Position numbers and translations under genes: made by a program | Assembly (NCBI GenBank): GCA_964016885.1 | Contig: OZ024740.1 | Span: 413,354,001-413,418,000, forward strand | Reading direction: 5' to 3' | Source: Eledone cirrhosa | Lineage: Eukaryota | Length of the DNA: 64,000 nucleotides | Part shown: positions 16,185-64,000 of the stretch, piece after piece | How positions within the stretch are numbered: the stretch's first letter is position 1 | Layout of the letters: each line of letters opens with the position of its first letter | The notes under the pieces: model-generated | What the model was told of the DNA's origin: nothing | The model's database searches: none | Seen by the model: the letters and a program-made list of their open reading frames with translations, nothing else

Positions 16185-16240
16185 ACTGCTATATATATTT
16201 CGATGATTGCCATAGAATGGCTATGACCTCATCAGGCAGT
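16185..16240 (-). ncRNA. Type I hammerhead ribozyme in the 3' pLTR
   Basis: ACTGC-CTGATGA-long stem II-GAAA-TATATA-TA-GCAGT, followed by AATAAA. Confidence 0.88.
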
Positions 16241-43519: not shown

Positions 43520-43583
<64 letters not shown>

Positions 43584-43589
<6 letters not shown>

Positions 43590-43890
43590 TAATACAATAA
43601 CAGAGAAAGCCGTAAGCTAAACTCCGACTGGTAACCATCTCACTCAACAAACATTAGGATATACGTTAGTATAATCCCAATTTTGTGTTTGGGGTGCTAA
43701 CTATATGTATTTTGTGGAAAGCCAGTTGCATTATTTTATATGAGATATAATTAAAATTAAAATATATCTCTCTTTCCAAACAATTGTTTCATTATAAGTT
43801 TTCTACAAGTTGGGAGAATTTTTCCAGTTTATGTAGAAGCCTTACATATTTTCCTGTAAGAATATATGTAGGTGGGCACTTATAAATCAT
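43584..43890 (+). repeat. ~305-bp segment duplicated at 44830-45136, directly upstream of U2
   Basis: Near-identical direct repeat. Confidence 0.9.
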
Positions 43891-43959: not shown

Positions 43960-44075
43960 GTCATCCCTTCACGCATCGAATGACCGCCAAATTTGAAATT
44001 CCAGCAGTCTTTAGACTGAGGAAATATCATAGCGTCACGAAGCGGAAAAGGGAGACAATCGCGAGTCACGAGAAA
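43960..44075 (-). promoter_or_regulatory. CpG-rich candidate promoter/5' UTR
   Basis: Local CpG cluster with GCGGAA (ETS-like), TCGCGA and CGTCACG motifs in AT-rich surroundings. Confidence 0.3.
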
Positions 44076-44088
44076 AGTAAAATAATAT

Positions 44089-44839
44089 ACACGTGGGTTA
44101 ATTAGTTTTTTCAAAAACATTATCAATCCTGCGTGTTAAGAACTCAATTAATTTTTAAAAAATAAATGTATGCATGTATTAATTACACACGCATATAGAT
44201 ATTTTCTTAGGCTAAACACAGAGAAGTGATACCTAAATAAAAAACCAATATCTCATAACAGTAATAAATACGGAAAGTTACGTTTAAAAGGCATCTGGAA
44301 ATATAAATCTCTGGCCAAATTAAGAGTAAAATATTTAATACACGTGGGTTAATTAGTTTTTTCAAAACCATTATCAATCCTGTGTGTTAAGAACTCAATT
44401 AATTTTTAAAAAATAAATGTATGCATGTATTATTTACACAAGCATATAGATATTTTCTTAGGCTAAAAACAGAGAAGTGATACCTAAATAACAAACAATA
44501 TCTCATAACAGTAATACATACGGAAAGTTACGTTTAAAAGGCATCTGGAAATATAAATCTCTGGCCAAATTGAGAGTAAAATATTTAATACACGTGGGTT
44601 AATTAGTTTTTTCAAAACCATTATCGATCCTGCGTGTTAAGAACTCAATTAATTTAAAAAAAATAAATGTATGCATGTATTATTTACACACGCATATAGA
44701 TATTTTCTTAGGCTAAAAACAGAGAAGTGATACCTAAATAACAAACAATATCTCATAACAGTAATAAATACGGAAAGTTACGTTTATAAGGCATCTGGAA
44801 ATATAAATCTCTGGCCAAATCAAGAGTAAAATATTTAAT
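44089..44839. repeat. Three tandem copies of a ~250-bp unit
   Basis: ACACGTGGGTTAATTAG at 44089, 44340 and 44590. Confidence 0.93.
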
Positions 44840-45154
44840 ACAATAACAGAGAAAGCTTTAAGCTAAACTCCGACTGGTAACCATCTCACTCAACAAACAT
44901 TAGGATATACGTTAGTATAATCCGAATTTTGTGTTTGGGGTGCTAACTATATGTATTTTGTGGAAAGCCAGTTGTATTATTTTATATGAGATATAATTAA
45001 AATTAAAATATATCTTTCTTTCCAAACAATTGTTTCATTATTTGCTTTCTACAAGTTGAGAGAATGTTTCCAGTTTATGTAGAAGCCTAACATATTTTCC
45101 TGTAAGAATATATGTAGGTGGGCACTTATAAATCATCTTATAAATCACTTATAA

Positions 45155-45341
45155 ATCACTTCTCGGCCGTTTGGCTAAGATCAAAGTGTAGCATCTGTTC
45201 TTATCAGCTTAATATCTGATATGGTCCCTATATGGGACCATCGATATTAAACTGATTTTTAGAACTTGGCGAAGAGTTAGGGGCTTGCACCGCCTTTGCC
45301 ACGTTGGCCTGGTATTGCAGTATATCCAGGATTAGTCCCAT
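45155..45341 (+). ncRNA. U2: U2 snRNA, full-length variant or pseudogene
   Basis: ATCaCTTCTCGGCCgTTTGGCTAAGATCAAAGTGTAGcATCTGTTCTTATCAGCTTAATATCTGATA; stem IIb TGGTCCC/GGGACCA; Sm-like ATTTTTAG; SLIV CCTGG-TATTGCAGTATAT-CCAGG. Confidence 0.93.
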
Positions 45342-45345
45342 CTAT

Positions 45346-45387
<42 letters not shown>

Positions 45388-45674
45388 AAATAACGAAACG
45401 AAATTACATTTCGTTTCGTTTGTAACTCACTTTTGTATGACTGACGCTTAAACAATTAAGTTAAAAATGTACATCCACATATGTATACTGAAATACTAGT
45501 ATGCATATGAATACACACACGTATACATATGTAGATGTACCAAGTTTTTCACTGGTCACTTTACTGTGAGTGTCCAGCTATTCTGTATGTAAACACACAG
45601 ACAAACCGGTTTTTAGAGTCATACTGGTTTTTGAGGAAACACCTTTCCTCTATTCTCCAGAAAGCCAGACAAGG

Positions 45675-45719
45675 AATATTGAACTAGTTTCGTTGTTGTT
45701 ACAACTCATCAGCAATATT
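45675..45719 (-). ncRNA. Minimal type I hammerhead ribozyme
   Basis: Reverse complement of 46053-46097. Confidence 0.88.
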
Positions 45720-46052
45720 TACCTATTTTCCGGCCTTTCTGGAGAATCGTAAAAGCACATATCGTTATATGCTTTTTCTATGAAAATTAGTAGTGGGCAG
45801 ACTAATTTGCATAGAGTGTGAGTACGTACCGGTTCAACGGAGACGATAAAAACAAATAACGAAAAGAAATTACATTTCGTTTCGTTTGTAACTCACATAT
45901 AATTTCGTTTCGTTATTTGTTTTTATCGTCTCCGTTGAACCGGTACGTACTCACACTCTATGCAAATTAGTCTGCCCACTACTAATTTTCATAGAAAAAG
46001 CATATAACGATATGTGCTTTTACGATTCTCCAGAAAGGCCGGAAGATAGGTA

Positions 46053-46097
46053 AATATTGCTGATGAGTTGTAACAACAACGAAACTAGTTCAATATT
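46053..46097 (+). ncRNA. Minimal type I hammerhead ribozyme
   Basis: AATATTG-CTGATGA-GTTGT aaca ACAAC-GAAA-CTAG-TT-CAATATT. Confidence 0.88.
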
Positions 46098-46345
46098 CCT
46101 TGTCTGGCTTTCTGGAGAATAGAGGAAAGGTGTTTCTTCAAAAACCAGTATGACTCTAAAAACCGGTTTGTCTGTGTGTTTACATACAGAATAGCTGGAC
46201 ACTCACAGTAAAGTGACCAGTGAAAAACTTGGTACATCTACATATGTATACGTGTGTGTATTCATATGCATACTAGTATTTCAGTATACATATGTGGATG
46301 TACATTTTTAACTTAATTATATATATATATATATATATATTATTA

Positions 46346-46650: not shown

Positions 46651-46687
<37 letters not shown>

Positions 46688-46851
46688 AACGAGTAGGACC
46701 CCGACGGCTGAATCCAGTGCAGATTTAGCCGTCGAACGGCTTTAGCTCAGCCGTCGGGGACCTACTCGTTCCTATTACCCACTCTAATACCCTAAGTATT
46801 GAGTACTTTGGTGCGTTATGGTCCACCTGGTTCCTTACCACATTTCCTTCG

Positions 46852-47222: not shown

Positions 47223-47723
47223 ATAATATATATATGTAGGTGTGTGTGTGTTAGTGTGTGTGTGTGTGAGTGTGTGTGTGTATGTGCGTGTGTGTGTGTG
47301 TGTGTGTGCAAAAAGCCACTTTTCTAAAGCATTGTCAGTAGAATGAGCCCCTCGTTTTTACTCTTGTGTTGGCATCTAAACAGAACTGTAGAGACCAATG
47401 TTTCTGGGCATCCCCCTTCATCAGTGCAATTCACTGTTCACCTGCCAACTGCCAGAGCTAGTGAAAATATATATTTTCAAAAATATACATTTTCAAAAAT
47501 ATACAGTGACTGATCGGCCTGATTTGCATATTAGTAGACTGATTTGCATTTTAGAAGATCCACTGGTCAGCCAAATTTGCATATCAGCAGATAGGCCAGT
47601 CACTTTCTTGGATACGAGCGATTAATATACGGGTATAATTCCAAACGAATCGAATATTATTAATATTCGAATAACTCAGATTACATTTATTGTATTCAGC
47701 CATGTAGAGCGGCAACTTTTTGT

Positions 47724-47798: not shown

Positions 47799-48367
<569 letters not shown>

Positions 48368-51477: not shown

Positions 51478-54400
51478 GTCATGCTCTTATAATATAAGTA
51501 AGTGAAACAACTTCAGTCTTACTCTATATTATCAGTAAGTTACACAACTTCATTCTTACTCTTGTAATATAAGTAAGTGAAACAACTTCAGTCTTACGCT
51601 ATATTATCTGAAAGTGATACAACTTCAGTCTTACTCTATAATATCAGTAAGTGAAACAACTTCAGTATTACTCTATATTATCAGTAAGTGAAACAACTTC
51701 AGTCTTACTCTATAATATCAGTAAGTGAAATAACTTCAGTATTACTCTCTAATATCAGTAAGTGACACAACTTCAGTCTTACTCTATATTATCAGTAAGT
51801 GAAACAGCTTCAGTGTTAATATATAATATCAGTAAGTGAAACAATTTCAGTCTTACTCTTATAATATCAGTAAGTGAAACAACTTCAGTCTTAATATATA
51901 TTATCAGTAAGTGAAACTACTTCAGTCTTACTCTATATTATCAGTAAGTGAAACAAATTCAGTCTTATTCTATAATATCAATAAGTGGAACAACTTGAGT
52001 CTTACTCTATATTATCAGTAAGTGAAACAACTTCAGTCTTACTCTATATTATCAGTAAGTGAAACAAATTCAGTCTTACTCTATAATATCAGTAAGTGGA
52101 ACAACTTCAGTCTTACTCTATAATATCAGTAAGTTAAACAACTTCAGTCTTACTCTATAATAACAGTAAGTGAAACAACTTCAGTCTTACTCTATAATAT
52201 CAGTAAGTGAAACAACTTCAGTCTTACTCTATATTATCAGTAAGTGAAACAACTTCAGTTTTACTCTATATTATCAGTAAGTGAAACAACTTCAGTCTTA
52301 CTCTATATTATCAGTAAGTGAAACAAATTCAGTCTTACTCTATAATATCAGTAAGTGAAACAACTTCAGTCTTACTCTATAATAACAGTAAGTGAAACAA
52401 CTTCATGTTTACTCTATACTATCAGTGAGTGAAACAACTTCAGTCTTACTCTATAATATCAGTAAGTGAAACAACTTCAGTCTTACTCTATAATATCAGT
52501 AAGTGAAACAACTTCAGTCTTACTCTATAATATCAGTAAGTGAAACAACTTCAGTCTTACTCTATAATATCAGTAAGTGATACAATTTCAGTCTTACTCT
52601 ATAATAACAGTAAGTGAAACAACTTCATGTTTACTCTATAATATCAGTAAGTGAAACAACTTCAGTCTTACTCTATAATATCAGTAAGTGAAACAACTTC
52701 AGTTTTACTCTATAATATCAGTAAGTGAAATAACTTCAGTCTTACTCTATAATATCAGTGAGTGAACCAACTTCATGTTTACTCTATAATATCAGTAAGT
52801 GAAACAACTTCAGTTTTACTCTATAATATCAGTAAGTGAAATAACTTCAGTCTTACTCTATAATATCAGTAAGTGAACCAACTTCATGTTTACTCTATAA
52901 TATCAGTAAGTGAAATAACTTCAGTCTTACTCTATAATATCAGTGAGTGAAACAACTTCAGTCTTACTCAATATTATCAGTAAGTGAAACAACTTCAGTC
53001 TTACTCAATATTATCAGTACGTGTAACAACTTCAGTCTTACTTTATATTATCAGTAAGTGAAACAACTTCAGTGTTACTCTATATTATCAGTAAGTGAAA
53101 CGACTTCCGTCTTACTCTATATTATCAGTAAGTGAAACAACTTCAGTGTTACTCTTATATTATCAGTAAGTGAAACAACTTCAGTGTTACTCTATATTAT
53201 CAGTAAGTGAAACAACTTCAGTGTTACTCTATATTATCAGTAAGTGAAACAACTTCAGACTTACTCTATATTATCAGTAAGTGAAACAACTTCAGTCTTA
53301 CTCTGTAATATCAGTAAGTAAAACAGCATCAGTGTTACTCTATATTTGTTTCTACTTTTAGGCACAAGGCCAGCAATAACCCAGTACATTACTGGTACTT
53401 TATTTTATCGACCCCGTAAGAATGAAAGGCAAAGTCAACCCCGGCGGGACTTGAACTCCACCGTAAAGGGACGTAACAAAGCTGGAAAGCATGGCGTCCG
53501 ATCTTCTAACGATACTGCCAATCCACCACCTACCGATACTGCCAATCCACCGCCTTGTTACTCTATATTATCAGTAAGTCATACAACTTCAGTCTCACTC
53601 TATATTATCAGTAAGTGAAACAACTTCAGTCTTACTCTATATTATCAGTAAGTGAAACAACTTCAGTCTTACTCTATATTATCAGTAAGTGAAACAACTT
53701 CAGTGTTACTCTTATATTATCAGTAAGTGAAACAACTTCAGTGTTACTCTTATATTATCAGTAAGTGAAACAACTTCAGTCTTAGTCTATATTATCAGTA
53801 AGTGAAACAACTTCAGTCTTACTCTATATTATCAGTAAGTGAAACAACTTCAGTGTTACTCTTATATTATCAGTAAGTGAAACAACTTCAGTCTTAGTCT
53901 ATATTATCAGTAGGTGAAACAACTTCAGTGTTACTCTTATATTATCAGTAAGTGAAACAACTGCAGTCTTAGTCTATATTATCAGTAGGTGAAACAACTT
54001 CAGTCTTACTCTATAATATCAGTAAGTGAAACAACTTCTGTCGTACTCTATAATATCAGTAAGTGAAACAACTTCAGTCTTACTCTATATTATCAGTAAG
54101 AGAAACAACTTCAGTGTTATTCTATTTCATCAGTAAGTGAAACAACATCAGTGTTACTCTATATTATCAGTAAGTGAAACAACTTCAGTCTTACTCTATT
54201 TTATCAGTAAGTCAAACAACTTCAGTCTTACTCTATAATAACAGTAAGTGAAACAACTTCATGTTTACTCTATACTATCAGTGAGTGAAACAACTTCAGT
54301 CTTACTCTATAATATCAGTAAGTGAAACAACTTCAGTCTTACTCTATAATATCAGTAAGTGAAACAACTTCAGTCTTACTCTATAATATCAGTAAGTGAA

Positions 54401-57400
54401 ACAACTTCAGTCTTACTCTATAATATCAGTAAGTGATACAATTTCAGTCTTACTCTATAATAACAGTAAGTGAAACAACTTCATGTTTACTCTATAATAT
54501 CAGTAAGTGAAACAACTTCAGTCTTACTCTATAATATCAGTAAGTGAAACAACTTCAGTTTTACTCTATAATATCAGTAAGTGAAATAACTTCAGTCTTA
54601 CTCTATAATATCAGTGAGTGAACCAACTTCATGTTTACTCTATAATATCAGTAAGTGAAACAACTTCAGTTTTACTCTATAATATCAGTAAGTGAAATAA
54701 CTTCAGTCTTACTCTATAATATCAGTAAGTGAACCAACTTCATGTTTACTCTATAATATCAGTAAGTGAAATAACTTCAGTCTTACTCTATAATATCAGT
54801 GAGTGAAACAACTTCAGTCTTACTCAATATTATCAGTAAGTGAAACAACTTCAGTCTTACTCAATATTATCAGTACGTGTAACAACTTCAGTCTTACTTT
54901 ATATTATCAGTAAGTGAAACAACTTCAGTGTTACTCTATATTATCAGTAAGTGAAACGACTTCCGTCTTACTCTATATTATCAGTAAGTGAAACAACTTC
55001 AGTGTTACTCTTATATTATCAGTAAGTGAAACAACTTCAGTGTTACTCTATATTATCAGTAAGTGAAACAACTTCAGACTTACTCTATATTATCAGTAAG
55101 TGAAACAACTTCAGTCTTACTCTGTAATATCAGTAAGTAAAACAGCATCAGTGTTACTCTATATTTGTTTCTACTTTTAGGCACAAGGCCAGCAATAACC
55201 CAGTACATTACTGGTACTTTATTTTATCGACCCCGTAAGAATGAAAGGCAAAGTCAACCTCGGCGGGACTTGAACTCCACCGTAAAGGGACGTAACAAAG
55301 CTGGAAAGCATGGCGTCCGATCTTCTAACGATACTGCCAATCCACCACCTACCGATACTGCCAATCCACCGCCTTGTTACTCTATATTATCAGTAAGTCA
55401 TACAACTTCAGTCTCACTCTATATTATCAGTAAGTGAAACAACTTCAGTCTTACTCTATATTATCAGTAAGTGAAACAACTTCAGTCTTACTCTATATTA
55501 TCAGTAAGTGAAACAACTTCAGTGTTACTCTTATATTATCAGTAAGTGAAACAACTTCAGTGTTACTCTTATATTATCAGTAAGTGAAACAACTTCAGTC
55601 TTAGTCTATATTATCAGTAAGTGAAACAACTTCAGTCTTACTCTATATTATCAGTAAGTGAAACAACTTCAGTGTTACTCTTATATTATCAGTAAGTGAA
55701 ACAACTTCAGTCTTAGTCTATATTATCAGTAGGTGAAACAACTTCAGTGTTACTCTTATATTATCAGTAAGTGAAACAACTGCAGTCTTAGTCTATATTA
55801 TCAGTAGGTGAAACAACTTCAGTCTTACTCTATAATATCAGTAAGTGAAACAACTTCTGTCGTACTCTATAATATCAGTAAGTGAAACAACTTCAGTCTT
55901 ACTCTATATTATCAGTAAGAGAAACAACTTCAGTGTTATTCTATTTCATCAGTAAGTGAAACAACATCAGTGTTACTCTATATTATCAGTAAGTGAAACA
56001 ACTTCAGTCTTACTCTATTTTATCAGTAAGTCAAACAACTTCAGTCTTACTCTATAATAACAGTAAGTGAAACAACTTCATGTTTACTCTATACTATCAG
56101 TGAGTGAAACAACTTCAGTCTTACTCTATAATATCAGTAAGTGAAACAACTTCAGTCTTACTCTATAATATCAGTAAGTGAAACAACTTCAGTCTTACTC
56201 TATAATATCAGTAAGTGAAACAACTTCAGTCTTACTCTATAATATCAGTAAGTGATACAATTTCAGTCTTACTCTATAATAACAGTAAGTGAAACAACTT
56301 CATGTTTACTCTATAATATCAGTAAGTGAAACAACTTCAGTCTTACTCTATAATATCAGTAAGTGAAACAACTTCAGTTTTACTCTATAATATCAGTAAG
56401 TGAAATAACTTCAGTCTTACTCTATAATATCAGTGAGTGAACCAACTTCATGTTTACTCTATAATATCAGTAAGTGAAACAACTTCAGTTTTACTCTATA
56501 ATATCAGTAAGTGAAATAACTTCAGTCTTACTCTATAATATCAGTAAGTGAACCAACTTCATGTTTACTCTATAATATCAGTAAGTGAAATAACTTCAGT
56601 CTTACTCTATAATATCAGTGAGTGAAACAACTTCAGTCTTACTCAATATTATCAGTAAGTGAAACAACTTCAGTCTTACTCAATATTATCAGTACGTGTA
56701 ACAACTTCAGTCTTACTTTATATTATCAGTAAGTGAAACAACTTCAGTGTTACTCTATATTATCAGTAAGTGAAACGACTTCCGTCTTACTCTATATTAT
56801 CAGTAAGTGAAACAACTTCAGTGTTACTCTTATATTATCAGTAAGTGAAACAACTTCAGTGTTACTCTATATTATCAGTAAGTGAAACAACTTCAGACTT
56901 ACTCTATATTATCAGTAAGTGAAACAACTTCAGTCTTACTCTGTAATATCAGTAAGTAAAACAGCATCAGTGTTACTCTATATTTGTTTCTACTTTTAGG
57001 CACAAGGCCAGCAATAACCCAGTACATTACTGGTACTTTATTTTATCGACCCCGTAAGAATGAAAGGCAAAGTCAACCTCGGCGGGACTTGAACTCCACC
57101 GTAAAGGGACGTAACAAAGCTGGAAAGCATGGCGTCCGATCTTCTAACGATACTGCCAATCCACCACCTACCGATACTGCCAATCCACCGCCTTGTTACT
57201 CTATATTATCAGTAAGTCATACAACTTCAGTCTCACTCTATATTATCAGTAAGTGAAACAACTTCAGTCTTACTCTATATTATCAGTAAGTGAAACAACT
57301 TCAGTCTTACTCTATATTATCAGTAAGTGAAACAACTTCAGTGTTACTCTTATATTATCAGTAAGTGAAACAACTTCAGTGTTACTCTTATATTATCAGT

Positions 57401-60400
57401 AAGTGAAACAACTTCAGTCTTAGTCTATATTATCAGTAAGTGAAACAACTTCAGTCTTACTCTATATTATCAGTAAGTGAAACAACTTCAGTGTTACTCT
57501 TATATTATCAGTAAGTGAAACAACTTCAGTCTTAGTCTATATTATCAGTAGGTGAAACAACTTCAGTGTTACTCTTATATTATCAGTAAGTGAAACAACT
57601 GCAGTCTTAGTCTATATTATCAGTAGGTGAAACAACTTCAGTCTTACTCTATAATATCAGTAAGTGAAACAACTTCTGTCGTACTCTATAATATCAGTAA
57701 GTGAAACAACTTCAGTCTTACTCTATATTATCAGTAAGAGAAACAACTTCAGTGTTATTCTATTTCATCAGTAAGTGAAACAACATCAGTGTTACTCTAT
57801 ATTATCAGTAAGTGAAACAACTTCAGTCTTACTCTATTTTATCAGTAAGTCAAACAACTTCAGTCTTACTCTATAATAACAGTAAGTGAAACAACTTCAT
57901 GTTTACTCTATACTATCAGTGAGTGAAACAACTTCAGTCTTACTCTATAATATCAGTAAGTGAAACAACTTCAGTCTTACTCTATAATATCAGTAAGTGA
58001 AACAACTTCAGTCTTACTCTATAATATCAGTAAGTGAAACAACTTCAGTCTTACTCTATAATATCAGTAAGTGATACAATTTCAGTCTTACTCTATAATA
58101 ACAGTAAGTGAAACAACTTCATGTTTACTCTATAATATCAGTAAGTGAAACAACTTCAGTCTTACTCTATAATATCAGTAAGTGAAACAACTTCAGTTTT
58201 ACTCTATAATATCAGTAAGTGAAATAACTTCAGTCTTACTCTATAATATCAGTGAGTGAACCAACTTCATGTTTACTCTATAATATCAGTAAGTGAAACA
58301 ACTTCAGTTTTACTCTATAATATCAGTAAGTGAAATAACTTCAGTCTTACTCTATAATATCAGTAAGTGAACCAACTTCATGTTTACTCTATAATATCAG
58401 TAAGTGAAATAACTTCAGTCTTACTCTATAATATCAGTGAGTGAAACAACTTCAGTCTTACTCAATATTATCAGTAAGTGAAACAACTTCAGTCTTACTC
58501 AATATTATCAGTACGTGTAACAACTTCAGTCTTACTTTATATTATCAGTAAGTGAAACAACTTCAGTGTTACTCTATATTATCAGTAAGTGAAACGACTT
58601 CCGTCTTACTCTATATTATCAGTAAGTGAAACAACTTCAGTGTTACTCTTATATTATCAGTAAGTGAAACAACTTCAGTGTTACTCTATATTATCAGTAA
58701 GTGAAACAACTTCAGTGTTACTCTATATTATCAGTAAGTGAAACAACTTCAGACTTACTCTATATTATCAGTAAGTGAAACAACTTCAGTCTTACTCTGT
58801 AATATCAGTAAGTAAAACAGCATCAGTGTTACTCTATATTTGTTTCTACTTTTAGGCACAAGGCCAGCAATAACCCAGTACATTACTGGTACTTTATTTT
58901 ATCGACCCCGTAAGAATGAAAGGCAAAGTCAACCTCGGCGGGACTTGAACTCCACCGTAAAGGGACGTAACAAAGCTGGAAAGCATGGCGTCCGATCTTC
59001 TAACGATACTGCCAATCCACCACCTACCGATACTGCCAATCCACCGCCTTGTTACTCTATATTATCAGTAAGTCATACAACTTCAGTCTCACTCTATATT
59101 ATCAGTAAGTGAAACAACTTCAGTCTTACTCTATATTATCAGTAAGTGAAACAACTTCAGTCTTACTCTATATTATCAGTAAGTGAAACAACTTCAGTGT
59201 TACTCTTATATTATCAGTAAGTGAAACAACTTCAGTGTTACTCTTATATTATCAGTAAGTGAAACAACTTCAGTCTTAGTCTATATTATCAGTAAGTGAA
59301 ACAACTTCAGTCTTACTCTATATTATCAGTAAGTGAAACAACTTCAGTGTTACTCTTATATTATCAGTAAGTGAAACAACTTCAGTCTTAGTCTATATTA
59401 TCAGTAGGTGAAACAACTTCAGTGTTACTCTTATATTATCAGTAAGTGAAACAACTGCAGTCTTAGTCTATATTATCAGTAGGTGAAACAACTTCAGTCT
59501 TACTCTATAATATCAGTAAGTGAAACAACTTCTGTCGTACTCTATAATATCAGTAAGTGAAACAACTTCAGTCTTACTCTATATTATCAGTAAGAGAAAC
59601 AACTTCAGTGTTATTCTATTTCATCAGTAAGTGAAACAACATCAGTGTTACTCTATATTATCAGTAAGTGAAACAACTTCAGTCTTACTCTATTTTATCA
59701 GTAAGTCAAACAACTTCAGTCTTAATCTATATTATCAGGAAGTGAAACAATTTCAGTGTTACTCTATATTATCAGTAAGTGAAACAACTTCAGTCTTACT
59801 CTATAATATCTGTAAGTGAAACAACTTCAGTCTTACTCTATAATAACAGTAAGTGAAACAACTTCATGTTTACTCTATAATATCAGTGAGTGAAACAACT
59901 TCAGTCTTACTCTATAATATCAGTAAGTGAAACAACTTCAGTCTTACTCTATAATATCAGTAAGTGAAATAACTTCAGTCTTACTCTATAATATCAGTAA
60001 GTGAACCAACTTCATGTTTACTCTATAATATCAGTAAGTGAAACAACTTCAGTCTTACTCTATATTATCAGTAAGTGAAACAACTTCATGTTCACTCTAT
60101 AATATCAGTGAGTGAAACAACTTCAGTCTTACTCAATATTATCAGTAAGTGAAACAACTTCAGTCTTACTCAATATTATCAGTACGTGTAACAACTTCAG
60201 TCTTACTTTATATTATCAGTAAGTGAAACAACTTCAGTGTTACTCTATATTATCGGTAAGTGAAACGACTTCCGTCTTACTCTATATTATCAGTAAGTGA
60301 AACAACTTCAGTGTTACTCTTATATTATCAGTAAGTGAAACAACTTCAGTCTTACTCTATTTTATCAGTAAGTCAAACAACTTCAGTCTTAATCTATATT

Positions 60401-63400
60401 ATCAGGAAGTGAAACAATTTCAGTGTTACTCTATATTATCAGTAAGTGAAACAACTTCAGTCTTACTCTATAATATCTGTAAGTGAAACAACTTCAGTCT
60501 TACACTATATTATCAGTAAGTGAAACAACTTCAGTGTTACTCTTATATTATCAGTAAGTGAAACAATTTCAGTCTTACTCTATATTATCAGTAAGTGAAA
60601 CAACTTCAGTCTTACTTAATATTATCAGTAAGTGAAACAACTTTAGTCATACTCTATAATATCAGTAGGTGAAACAGCTTCAGTGTTACTCTATATTATC
60701 AGTAAGTGAAACAACTTCAGTCTTACTCTATATTATCATTAAGTGAAACAGCATCAGTCTTACTCTGTATTATCAGTAGGTGAAACAACTTCAGTCTTAC
60801 TCTATATTATCATTAAGTGAAACAACTTCAGTCTTACTCTATATTATCATTAAGTGAAACAACTTCAGTCTTACTTTATATTATCAGTAAGTGAAATAAC
60901 TTCAGCCTTACTCTATATAATTAGAAAGTGAAACAACTTCAGTCTTACTCTATGTTATCAGTAAGTGAAACAACTTCAGTGTTACTCTATATTATCAGTA
61001 AGTGAAACAAATTCAGTGTTACTCTATATTATCAGTAAGTGAAACGACTTCCGTCTTACTCTATATTATCAGTAAGTGAAACAACTTCAGTGTTACTCTT
61101 ATATTATCAGTAAGTGAAACAACTTGAGTGTTACTCTATATTATCAGTAAGTGAAACAACTTCAGACTTACTCTATATTATCAGTAAGTGAAACAACTTC
61201 AGTCTTACTCTGTAATATCAGTAAGTGAAACAGCATCAGTGTTACTCTATATTTGTTTCTACTTTTAGGCACAAGGCCAGCAATAACCCAGTACATTACT
61301 GGTACTATATTTTATCGACCCCGTAAGAATGAAAGGCAAAGTCAACCTCAGCCTTACTCTATATAATTAGAAAGTGAAACAACTTCAGTCTTACTCTATA
61401 TTATCAGTAAGTGAAACAACTTCAGTCTTACTCTATTTTATCAGTAAGTCAAACAACTTCAGTCTTAATCTATATTATCAGTAAGTGAAAAAACTTCAGT
61501 CTTACTCTATAATATCTGTAAGTGAAAAAACTTCAGTCTTACTCTATATTATCAGTAAGTGAAACAACTTCAGTGTTACTCTTATATTATCAGTAAGTGA
61601 AACAACTTCAGTCTTAGTCTATATTATCAGTAAGTGAAAAAACTTCAGTCTTACTCTATATTATCAGTAAGTGAAACAACTTCAGTGTTACTCTTATATT
61701 ATCAGTAAGTGAAACAACTTCAGTCTTAGTCTATATTATCAGTAGGTGAAACAACTTCAGTGTTACTCTTATATTATCAGTAAGTGAAACAACTGCAGTC
61801 TTAGTCTATATTATCAGTAGGTGAAACAACTTCAGTCTTACTCTATAATATCAGTAAGTGAAACAACTTCTGTCGTACTCTATAATATCAGTAAGTGAAA
61901 CAACTTCAGTCTTACTCTATATTATCAGTAAGAGAAACAACTTCAGTGTTATTCTATTTTATCAGTAAGTGAAACAACTTCAGTCTTACTCTATTTTATC
62001 AGTAAGTCAAACAACTTCAGTCTTACTCTATATTATCAGGAAGTGAAACAATTTCAGTGTTACTCTATAATATCAGTAAGTGAAACAACTTCAGTCTTAC
62101 TCTATAATATCTGTAAGTGAAACAACTTCAGTCTTACTCTATATTATCAGTAAGTGAAACAACTTCAGTGTTACTCTTATATTATCAGTAAGTGAAACAA
62201 TTTCAGTCTTACTCTATATTATCAGTAAGTGAAACAACTTCAGTCATACTCTATAATATCAGTAGGTGAAACAGCTTCAGTGTTACTCTATATTATCAGT
62301 AAGTGAAACAACTTCAGTCTTACTCTATGTTATCATTAAGTGAAACAGCATCAGTCTTACTCTGTATTATCAGTAGGTGAAACAACTTCAGTCTTACTCT
62401 ATATTATCATTAAGTGAAACAACTTCAGTCTTACTCTATATTATCATTAAGTGAAACAACTTCAGTCTTACTTTATATTATCAGTAAGTGAAACAACTTC
62501 AGCCTTACTCTATATAATTAGAAAGTGAAACAACTTCAGTCTTACTCTATTTTATCAGTAAGTGAAGCAACTTCAGTCTTACTCTATATTATCAGTAAGT
62601 GAAACAAATTCAGTCTTACTCTATAATATCAGTAAGTGAAACAACTTCAGTCTTACTCTATATTATCAGTAAGTGAAACAAATTCAGTCTTACTCTATAA
62701 TATCAGTAAGTGAAACAATTTCAGTCTTACTCTATAATAACAGTAAGTGAAACAACTTCATGTTTACTCTATAATATCAGTGAGTGAAACAATTTCAGTC
62801 TTACTCTATAATATCAGTAAGTGAAACAACTTCAGTCTTACTCTATAATATCAGTAAGTGATACAATTTCAGTCTTACTCTATAATAACAGTAAGTGAAA
62901 CAACTTCATGTTTACTCTATAATATCAGTAAGTGAAACAACTTCAGTCATACTCTATAATATCAGTAAGTGAAACAACTTCATTCTTACTCTATAATATC
63001 AGTAAGTGAAACAACTTCAGTCATACTCTATAATATCAGTAAGTGATACAACTTCAGTCTTACTCTATAATATCAGTAAGTGAAACAACTTCAGTCTCAC
63101 TCTATAATATCAGTAAGTGAAACAACTTCAGTCATACTCTATAATATCAGTAAGTCATACAACTTCAGTCTCACTCTATATTATCAGTAAGTGAAACAAC
63201 TTCAGTGTTACTCTATATTATCAGTAAGTGAAACAACTTCCGTCTTACTCCATAATATCAGTAACTGAAACAACTTCAGTCTTACTTTATATTATCAGTA
63301 AGTGAAACAACTTCAGTGTTACTCTATATTATCAGTAAGTGAAACAACTTCAGTCTTACTCTATATTATCAGTAAGTGAAACAACTTCAGTCTTACTCCG

Positions 63401-64000
63401 TATTATCAATAAGTGAAACAACTTCAGTCTTACTTTATATTATCAGTAAGTGAAACAACTTCAGTGTTACTCTATATTATCAGTAAGTGAAACAACTTCA
63501 GTCTTACTCTATATTATCAGTAAGTGAAACAACTTCAGTGTTACTCTATAATATCAGTAAGTGAAACGGCATCAGTGTTACATTATATTTGTTTCTACAT
63601 TTAGGCACAAGGCCAGCAATAACCCAGTACATTACTGGTACTATATTTTATCGACCCCGTAAGAATGAAAGGCAAAGTCAACCTCGGTGGGACTTGAACT
63701 CCATCGTAAAGGGACGTAACAATGCTGGAAAGCTAGGCCTCTGATCCTCTAACGATACTGCCAATCCACCACCTACCGATACTGCCAATCCACCGCATTG
63801 TTACTCTATATTATCAGTAAGTCATACAACTTCAGTCTTACTCTATATTATCAGTAAGTGAAACAACTTTAGTCTTACTTAATATTATCACAAAGTGAAA
63901 CAACTTCAGTCTTACTCTATATTATCATTAAGTGAAACAGCATCAGTCTTACTCTGTATTATCAGTAAGTGAAACAACTTCAGTCTTACTCTATATTATC
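51478..64000. repeat. 37-bp satellite array (consensus ATCAGTAAGTGAAACAACTTCAGTCTTACTCTATATT) with ~1.82-kb higher-order repeat; runs off the window
   Basis: Monomer counted directly; identical ORFs recur at 53346, 55165, 56984 and 58840 (periods 1819, 1819, 1856). Confidence 0.97.
53347..53555 (-). mobile_element. Nin/Deu-family SINE in the satellite; amplified copies at 55166-55374, 56985-57193, 58841-59049, 61254-61349 (truncated) and 63590-63798
   Basis: Family match, 14-bp TSD TGTTACTCTATATT, shared 24-bp head duplication. Confidence 0.92.

Follow-up and report, generated by a model that had tools for sequence, protein, structure and literature searches.

The 935-bp insertion described here probably belongs, at a rough probability of 80%, to a young and non-coding family of 466-nt hammerhead retrozymes whose copies take the form of tandem and mirror-image arms in (TA)n tracts, with the reverse transcriptase (RT) and GIY-YIG endonuclease functions of a Penelope-like element (PLE) likely supplied in trans. 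As a single locus it is ordinary, since both the kind of element and its Penelope-type layout were known before. The family offers a small and defined substrate, with two exact starts, a strand-skewed record of variants and ongoing spread, and is well suited to asking whether A-to-I edits become inherited via retrotransposition. Two of its features are new here, namely an A>G skew of inherited variants on the ribozyme strand and the lack of any arm that stops at the cleavage site. The origin of PLE tandems and inversions, the strand that is copied and the mobilisation of retrozymes are all left open in several papers (PMC8557442; PMC3846280; PMC7229834; 10.64898/2026.07.22.740005), and the family would serve for testing all three. 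No publication on the present family was found in the literature on cephalopod retrozymes and hammerheads or on inverted non-autonomous Penelope tandems, with subscription papers mostly outside that search.

The window, meaning the whole stretch of 64,000 nucleotides of Eledone cirrhosa DNA that was analysed, is animal DNA rich in AT microsatellites. The parts of the insertion and its nearest neighbour are given below, with unit positions q1-q466 counted from 45896 along the minus strand.

45155..45345, plus strand: U2 snRNA copy, a neighbour outside the element, 39 bp upstream of the insertion
45352..45383: (TA)n target tract, left
45384..46318: whole two-armed retrozyme insertion, 935 bp, between (TA)n tracts
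45384..45896, minus strand (RNA-sense): long arm, 513 nt or 1.10 units, 3' end at q47 (family end A, q47-52)
45384..45453, minus strand: ~70-nt "tail", q444-q47, between the family's two fixed 3' ends, with a hairpin at q11-39
45431..45896, minus strand: one full 466-nt monomer, q1 = 45896
45653..45746, minus strand: type I hammerhead of the long arm, extended stem I, core start 45712, predicted cut after 45682 (GUU)
45805..45812, minus strand: ATGCAAAT octamer, q85-92, kept in related family B
45876..45897: arm junction, long arm to q1 and inverted arm from q22, 21 nt unpaired
45897..46318, plus strand (RNA-sense): inverted arm, q22-443, 3' end at q443 (family end B, q442-448)
46026..46119, plus strand: type I hammerhead of the inverted arm, core start 46060, predicted cut after 46090 (GUU)
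46319..46340: (TA)n target tract, right

The arms pair as an inverted repeat of 422 bp (45454-45875 and 45897-46318) with 4 mismatches and 21 nt between them. The original prediction had described arms of 419 bp with few mismatches, and these arms are real once their length is corrected. It had also taken a 47-bp direct repeat as the sign of a tandem monomer. The repeat exists (45384-45430 and 45850-45896, 1 mismatch, spacing 466), as do 466-nt tandem arrays in the genome, but it is simply the excess of the 513-nt left arm over one 466-nt unit and does not mark a monomer boundary. G and C make up 165 of the 466 positions in the unit, and the longest stop-free frame in the tandem unit spans 57-60 aa; the proposed absence of coding capacity thus holds, with no frame in the unit exceeding 60 aa. 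The window copy carries 3 changes from the family majority and has no derived variant common to both arms. Because both of its flanks are (TA)n, a target duplication is unreadable at this copy.

As had been proposed, each arm carries an intact type I hammerhead, with a core that runs in the order CUGAUGA, stem II (5 bp with an AACA loop), GAAA, stem III and GUU. Stem III has 2 bp and is palindromic, and stem I has 7 bp followed by a bulge and then by a long helix, which encloses the hammerhead in the predicted fold just as was suggested. The Rfam model HH9 gives the two window hammerheads 37.7 and 33.4 bits (E 1e-07 and 2.4e-06) against a gathering score of 52, and an Rfam search of the window at the gathering threshold returned no hammerhead match. 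Rfam microRNA matches lie far under their gathering scores and were dismissed as hairpin noise. Elsewhere in the window, at 16235, 20132 and 40292 (minus), there are three minimal type I hammerheads of an unrelated family that have a short stem I, a long stem II and an AT-palindromic stem III. Two of these end near (TA)n, and all three are likely PLE stubs.

Metazoan type I ribozymes that function as dimers typically have a short palindromic helix III (PMC4209133), and the 2-bp palindromic stem III of the present hammerheads therefore makes it likely that they act as dimers. Among nine predicted Xenopus retrozyme dimers, eight gave no cleavage in vitro (10.64898/2026.07.22.740005). For the present family, self-cleavage and circle formation are predictions drawn from modelled structures. 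When folded as a circle, the monomer reaches a predicted -155 kcal/mol compared with -92 +/- 6 for 60 shuffles, and we infer a circular RNA by analogy with other families of this kind (PMC7229834). With one ribozyme per strand, the window copy cannot release a monomer on its own. Two or more successive units that each carry a ribozyme occur in the tandems of the family and not in this copy, which is likely a dead end, and any RNA circle could only stem from tandem arrays elsewhere.

Read-through of the window copy in either direction would yield a predicted fold of about -765 kcal/mol. This agrees with the suggestion that such a transcript would bury the ribozyme, since in the predicted hairpin of ~420 bp the core is paired with the other arm. 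Long near-perfect inverted repeats make up over half of the sampled copies, which would be a large potential source of dsRNA if read through. The only candidate driver of read-through that adjoins the element is the U2 snRNA copy, but it looks dead and was rejected in this role. It lacks the TCAGT motif that the inspected U1 and U2 genes have ~55 nt upstream, as well as the downstream sequence of U2 genes, and is therefore an unlikely driver; its substitutions, one of which falls in GUAGUA, add to the indications that it is likely a pseudogene. The U2 copy is preceded by an 11-bp repeat present 3.5 times and by 300 bp duplicated at 43581-43880.

Evidence that the window copy is one member of a large family comes from genome-wide counts. 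An exact 31-nt core occurs 5,142 times in 3.0 Gb and its reversed control never, and this abundance is therefore not due to chance. The exact junction of end A with (TA) occurs 2,128 times (control 1), which provides a lower bound on the number of insertion ends, and instances in which this tail continues into a following unit number 6,559. A genome search with the unit returned 607 candidates, and the 40 of these that were scored contain 137 matches, most of them 98-99% identical and many standing in head-to-tail runs. The search for tandem arrays that had been recommended was run, and head-to-tail 466-nt arrays are indeed present in this genome. Together with the lack of a PLE frame at the sampled loci, these arrays uphold the idea that the unit is a hammerhead retroelement which is non-autonomous and whose tandem monomer measures 466 nt. 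Arms range from a few bases to 27 units in length, and the longest locus holds 27 + 9 units (~36).

Three sets of loci, amounting to 84 loci altogether, were mapped. The first comprises the 38 loci most similar to the window unit, the second comprises 27 loci picked according to position among the first 100 core matches (C1, 0-56 Mb), and the third comprises the 19 loci most similar to a 468-nt variant. Sets one and two have one locus in common, and two of the three sets were chosen by similarity. At locus L109, all 18 full units are identical, and this 468-nt unit recurs with 100% identity at 3 other loci. The family is therefore very young or still active.

Related families help to place these observations. 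Sister family A' (L201-L213) has a 469-nt unit that is ~88% identical and has the same tail end, and its ribozyme carries a compensatory pair in stem II and a GUC triplet. Family B, which is called older than the present family (A), has a unit of ~423 nt and 4,362 candidates, with 92-94% identity among the best matches (for example, L137:1392-1900, which is G000:C28:7797891-7798399). It has the same two-end layout, with ends ~50 nt apart and inverted arms, and it keeps the core, stem III and a GGUA bulge, with stems I and II rewritten. Retention of the core while stems change across A, A' and B offers the best sign here that the ribozyme may be under selection.

The promoter of newt satellite 2 uses an octamer. 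In the present family, the octamer is present in 181 of 236 units, and ATGCAAAT is gone from the youngest 468-nt variant through three A>G changes. Like newt satellite 2 (PMC2220036; PMC7229834), the family has a tandem hammerhead repeat with a very short stem III. It also has an octamer in the unit. An snRNA-type promoter in the unit is not supported by comparison with U1 and U2 upstream regions. Alignment of the unit with U1 upstream regions gave nothing significant (best p=0.07-0.08), with only a TCAGT pentamer shared, the region upstream of the window U2 copy gave no significant match, and the octamer is absent within 300 bp of the 12 U1 loci examined. The pentamer lies in the tail at q453-457 (45440-45444, minus) and is kept in families A, A' and B; the occurrence of the same five letters some 55 nt ahead of the inspected U1 and U2 genes could be a coincidence.

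In this family, insertions normally take the form of a fold-back, which is also a known footprint of PLEs. The original prediction was right that the unit is folded back on itself, but this is routine and not a special feature of the site. Of the 27 loci chosen by position, 16 carry an inverted arm of 130 nt or longer, 10 show exact cores on both strands, and 19 show both fixed ends, as judged by motif, with some second arms measuring only 10-20 nt; the corresponding counts for the similarity-chosen sets are 24/38 and 14/19. One arm stops at q47-52 and the other at q442-448, with both ends facing outward and ~70 nt apart. At end A, (TA)n is present in 23 of the 27 position-sampled loci, and target duplications of 12-15 bp are seen at 4 loci outside (TA)n (L046, L065, L066 and L110).

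Palindromes are common assembly and library artefacts, and among the pieces listed from independent sequencing runs none spans the junction in the window. An artefactual fold-back, or a DNA rolling-circle (Helitron-like) satellite, is nonetheless a very improbable source of these data. There are 4 differences between the arms, which stop at two distinct termini shared across the family and whose flanks are unrelated, and the layout recurs at dozens of loci with differing junctions and target duplications. With respect to a DNA satellite, conservation of the ribozyme and the strand skew of the variants imply that the element passes through RNA.

The two arms of a locus are closely related. A derived variant is common to both arms in 29 of 39 two-armed loci, and both arms therefore come from one template variant. 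Full units differ on average by 0.47 changes between arms of one locus (181 pairs, mostly from two large loci) and by 12.3 changes between loci (6,213 pairs). No between-locus pair in that comparison is identical (0/6,213), which might be taken to mean that each insertion had a unique template and hence a circle, but this argument is refuted by the L109 unit that is identical elsewhere. Since identical source arrays exist, a linear template could also come from a homogeneous array. A 496-letter contig from one sequencing run, with a whole unit in permuted order, was rejected as RNA evidence, because a tandem array in trace genomic DNA gives the same contig.

Inner ends join positions that are more than 25 nt apart in 42 of 48 reliably called junctions, and 1-5 nt of overlap (microhomology) is seen at 28 of the 48. 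From the original 56 rows, 8 (q11/q33, including the window copy) were dropped as mis-called on the tail hairpin; an excess of close junctions that appears when they are kept (14/56, p=0.004) is not trusted. In rotifer Penelope, fold-backs have been proposed to arise by snap-back self-priming, possibly on an antisense template (PMC3846280). Such a model would suit the window junction, which sits in the tail hairpin with 21 nt between the arms, and the 6 of 48 junctions that are near-palindromic (within 10 nt; ~2 expected), and snap-back may produce a minority of junctions. As the general origin of the layout it seems improbable, given that unrelated positions are joined at the 42 junctions noted above, that both outer ends are fixed RNA-sense 3' ends, and that the skew described below is A>G on the sense strand, where an edited antisense template would give T>C. 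The scattered inner ends with overlaps fit better with two separately primed cDNAs that are joined mid-way. L1 twin-priming inversions likewise have head-to-head arms, outward RNA 3' ends and a join at microhomology. The present family shares all these features, and differs in that both starts are fixed and internal, poly(A) is lacking, and the arms overlap and repeat the unit.

The inner ends also bear on the nature of the template. None of the 112 inner ends (all rows) lies within 5 nt of the predicted cleavage site, which makes a linear ribozyme-cut monomer an unlikely template; the template would be a circle or an uncut multimer. Variants that recur every 2 or 3 units in one arm only (L119, L123-L124 and L161-L162) suggest multimeric templates or block-wise growth of arrays after insertion, and periodic variants specific to one arm are also present at L053. 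Array length was not accepted as proof of rolling-circle copying, because these arm-specific periodic variants fit later expansion.

The element is not itself an autonomous PLE, for it has no RT/GIY-YIG frame, but candidate enzymes of the appropriate type are numerous in the genome. A search with the Pfam PF01541 profile found 10,596 GIY-YIG candidates (150 of them scored), and RVT_1 and GIY-YIG were both matched in 7 of 9 long PLE-type frames scanned. One resident PLE family encodes RT, CxxC and GIY-YIG in a frame of up to 938 aa (L125, L126, L130, L133, L134 and L137), carries a U3-A8 variant of the hammerhead, shows two ends on (TA)n separated by 62 nt, and is a candidate for the class of helper. 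A protein-atlas search with its protein returned generic GIY-YIG/HTH_animal clusters. No PLE with ends homologous to the unit was found among the matches listed for 43 loci from the GIY-YIG candidates or in 20 loci sampled by end A, although so small a sample does not rule out such a partner.

If the unit were the pLTR of some autonomous PLE, its copies would be 5'-truncated stubs and tandems made from linear RNA, with no circular-RNA life. The ends, tail, inversion and target bias are as in PLE stubs (PMC8557442), opposite-strand hammerhead pairs 100-700 bp apart have been tied to truncated PLEs (PMC4209133), and an anole PLE uses unprocessed RNA in vitro (PMC11167929). This explanation is improbable for the present family, since the unit continues into a PLE frame at none of the 84 mapped loci and at none of the 20 additional loci sampled by their ends, the arms consist purely of units in tandem (up to 27 of them), no unit frame exceeds 60 aa, and A, A' and B all persist as non-coding units. 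At the sampled loci, a unit that is always the terminus of a PLE and never tandem, which the original prediction had named as the outcome that would overturn it, is the opposite of what was found. Copies near PLE frames at L136, L137 and L205 (the last frame being PLE-like by eye) were considered as pLTRs and proved to be complete insertions in flanking (TA)n. A 1,040-aa frame at L098 was rejected as a partner PLE, because it belongs to a separate insertion of an APE-RT LINE (Pfam RVT_1 + Exo_endo_phos). This LINE (L098:3788-6910) has a PHD finger inside its RT region, and pieces of the family lie on either side of it.

At the sequence level, the unit has the features of metazoan non-LTR retrozymes (PMC7229834; 10.64898/2026.07.22.740005), including a non-coding tandem unit of low GC with one type I hammerhead of the canonical kind, thousands of copies ranging from monomers to multimers, a predicted circle with strong self-pairing, target duplications of more than 4 bp, and PLEs in the same genome. 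Its 466 nt lie a little over the range of 150-450 bp in one account (PMC7229834) and fall within the 51-972 bp of another (10.64898/2026.07.22.740005). The accessible parts of these two papers describe no two-armed insertions, no two fixed ends with a tail and no strand skew; in the latter, "inverted" occurs in a reference title alone and "tail" is absent. For published retrozymes, expression and circles have been demonstrated, whereas the present family is known from DNA alone, and Xenopus retrozymes have pLTR homology to a partner PLE of a kind that was not found in the loci sampled here.

Like insertions of EN+ PLEs, those of the family combine a partial tandem with an inverted 5'-truncated copy and have a tail at one end (PMC8557442; PMC3846280), and they share a (TA)n bias, target duplications of ~10-15 bp, a hammerhead in the repeat and two fixed RT starts. 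The tail concept comes from work on PLEs (PMC8557442; PMC11167929). In vitro, an anole PLE introduces nicks into both strands of AT-rich targets, and its reverse transcription begins at two internal positions that delimit the tail (PMC11167929). Unlike EN+ PLEs, the family has no RT/GIY-YIG frame, either arm can span many units, and stem I of the ribozyme is long and bulged where PLEs have a minimal form. Its tail is ~70 nt long, compared with 30-40 in EN+ PLEs and 62 nt in the resident PLE family.

The most informative evidence on the template comes from the variants themselves. Across 83 loci, a variant was scored as inherited when it occurs in every copy within a locus and as private when it occurs in a single copy. 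On the ribozyme strand, the 62 inherited variants include 27 A>G, 9 T>C, 4 C>T and 6 G>A, and the 240 private variants include 23 A>G, 31 T>C, 30 C>T and 38 G>A. The excess of inherited A>G over T>C (p=0.002) differs from the pattern of private variants when rare inherited variants are compared with them (Fisher p=0.002), and the ratio of A>G to C>T is 27:4 for inherited and 23:30 for private variants (p=8e-5). Outgroup polarisation by family A' leaves 21 derived A>G changes and 5 derived T>C changes (p=0.0014), and polarisation by tree, with 14 ambiguous columns dropped, gives 13 and 5 (p=0.06). Counts of A>G and T>C elsewhere are small, at 6 vs 3 in family A' and 2 vs 0 and 7 vs 3 in family B. 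Variants within the ribozyme make up 1 of 62 inherited and 14 of 212 private changes, a difference that is not significant (p=0.20).

A skew on one strand that is limited to inherited changes argues for an RNA stage on the ribozyme strand, and sense-strand RNA is probably the template. A-to-I editing would be the simplest source of the skew, and whether it lies behind it is a matter of about even odds. Editing has been named as a possible cause of heterogeneity in retrozyme circles (PMC7229834), and for ADAR marks in retrotransposon copies, the matches listed include no title on PLEs or retrozymes. Three A>G changes are clustered in one hairpin of the 468-nt variant (q85, 89 and 90). The sites do not have the neighbour preference of ADAR, as 5' G is not depleted (4/27 vs 23/149), and 20 of the 27 convert A-U to G-U pairs, which selection for structure could favour.

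These last observations are the basis of a reading that is a variant within the preferred one and concerns its details, in which the PLE copies an uncut linear array, arrays grow by unequal exchange, and the skew arises from structure selection that tolerates G-U pairs or from transcription-linked mutation of the source, not from ADAR. It is a strong contender, with somewhat less than an even chance, and is favoured by the identical units at 4 loci, the periodic variants specific to one arm, the pairing kept as G-U and the missing neighbour preference. However, C>T changes also keep G-U pairing and yet account for only 4/62 inherited and 30/240 private variants, which speaks against structure selection, and the cluster of A>G changes in a single hairpin is less readily accommodated.

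For a PLE-mobilised retrozyme family, the following sequence of events might be envisaged. Tandem arrays would be transcribed on the ribozyme strand. Paired hammerheads, which likely act as dimers, would release monomers, and a host ligase would seal these into circles with extensive base pairing. A PLE protein would then make two nicks ~12-15 bp from each other, one in each strand of an AT-rich target, and one cDNA would begin at each of the two fixed RNA sites. Reverse transcription would run past the cleavage site, either on a circle or on an uncut multimer, and midway joining of the two cDNAs would give the head-to-head fold-back. Any A-to-I edits of the ribozyme-strand RNA would be fixed by reverse transcription and would produce the A>G skew. 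In its fullest form, the proposal is that a self-cleaved, ADAR-edited circle is copied from two fixed starts into both target strands by a borrowed Penelope enzyme, with editing as the main source of heritable change and with thousands of very young two-armed copies as a genomic record that fixes the sense template, against antisense self-priming. This combination is offered tentatively and is perhaps rather unlikely to be correct in every part.

The surroundings of the insertion in the window include several other repeats. A tandem repeat of 250 bp lies at 43989-44842 (3.1 copies, 95% matches), and a small inverted-repeat element follows a (TA)n tract at 46686-46772, with similar sequence present in L134. 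Three spaced copies of the octamer ATTTGCAT lie at 47509-47591, followed by a second inverted repeat (47800-47980 and 48044-48224) that has 181-bp arms at 97% and ends at (TA)n. A 37-bp satellite occupies 51488-64000 in about 326 copies, with a higher-order period of ~1.8 kb.
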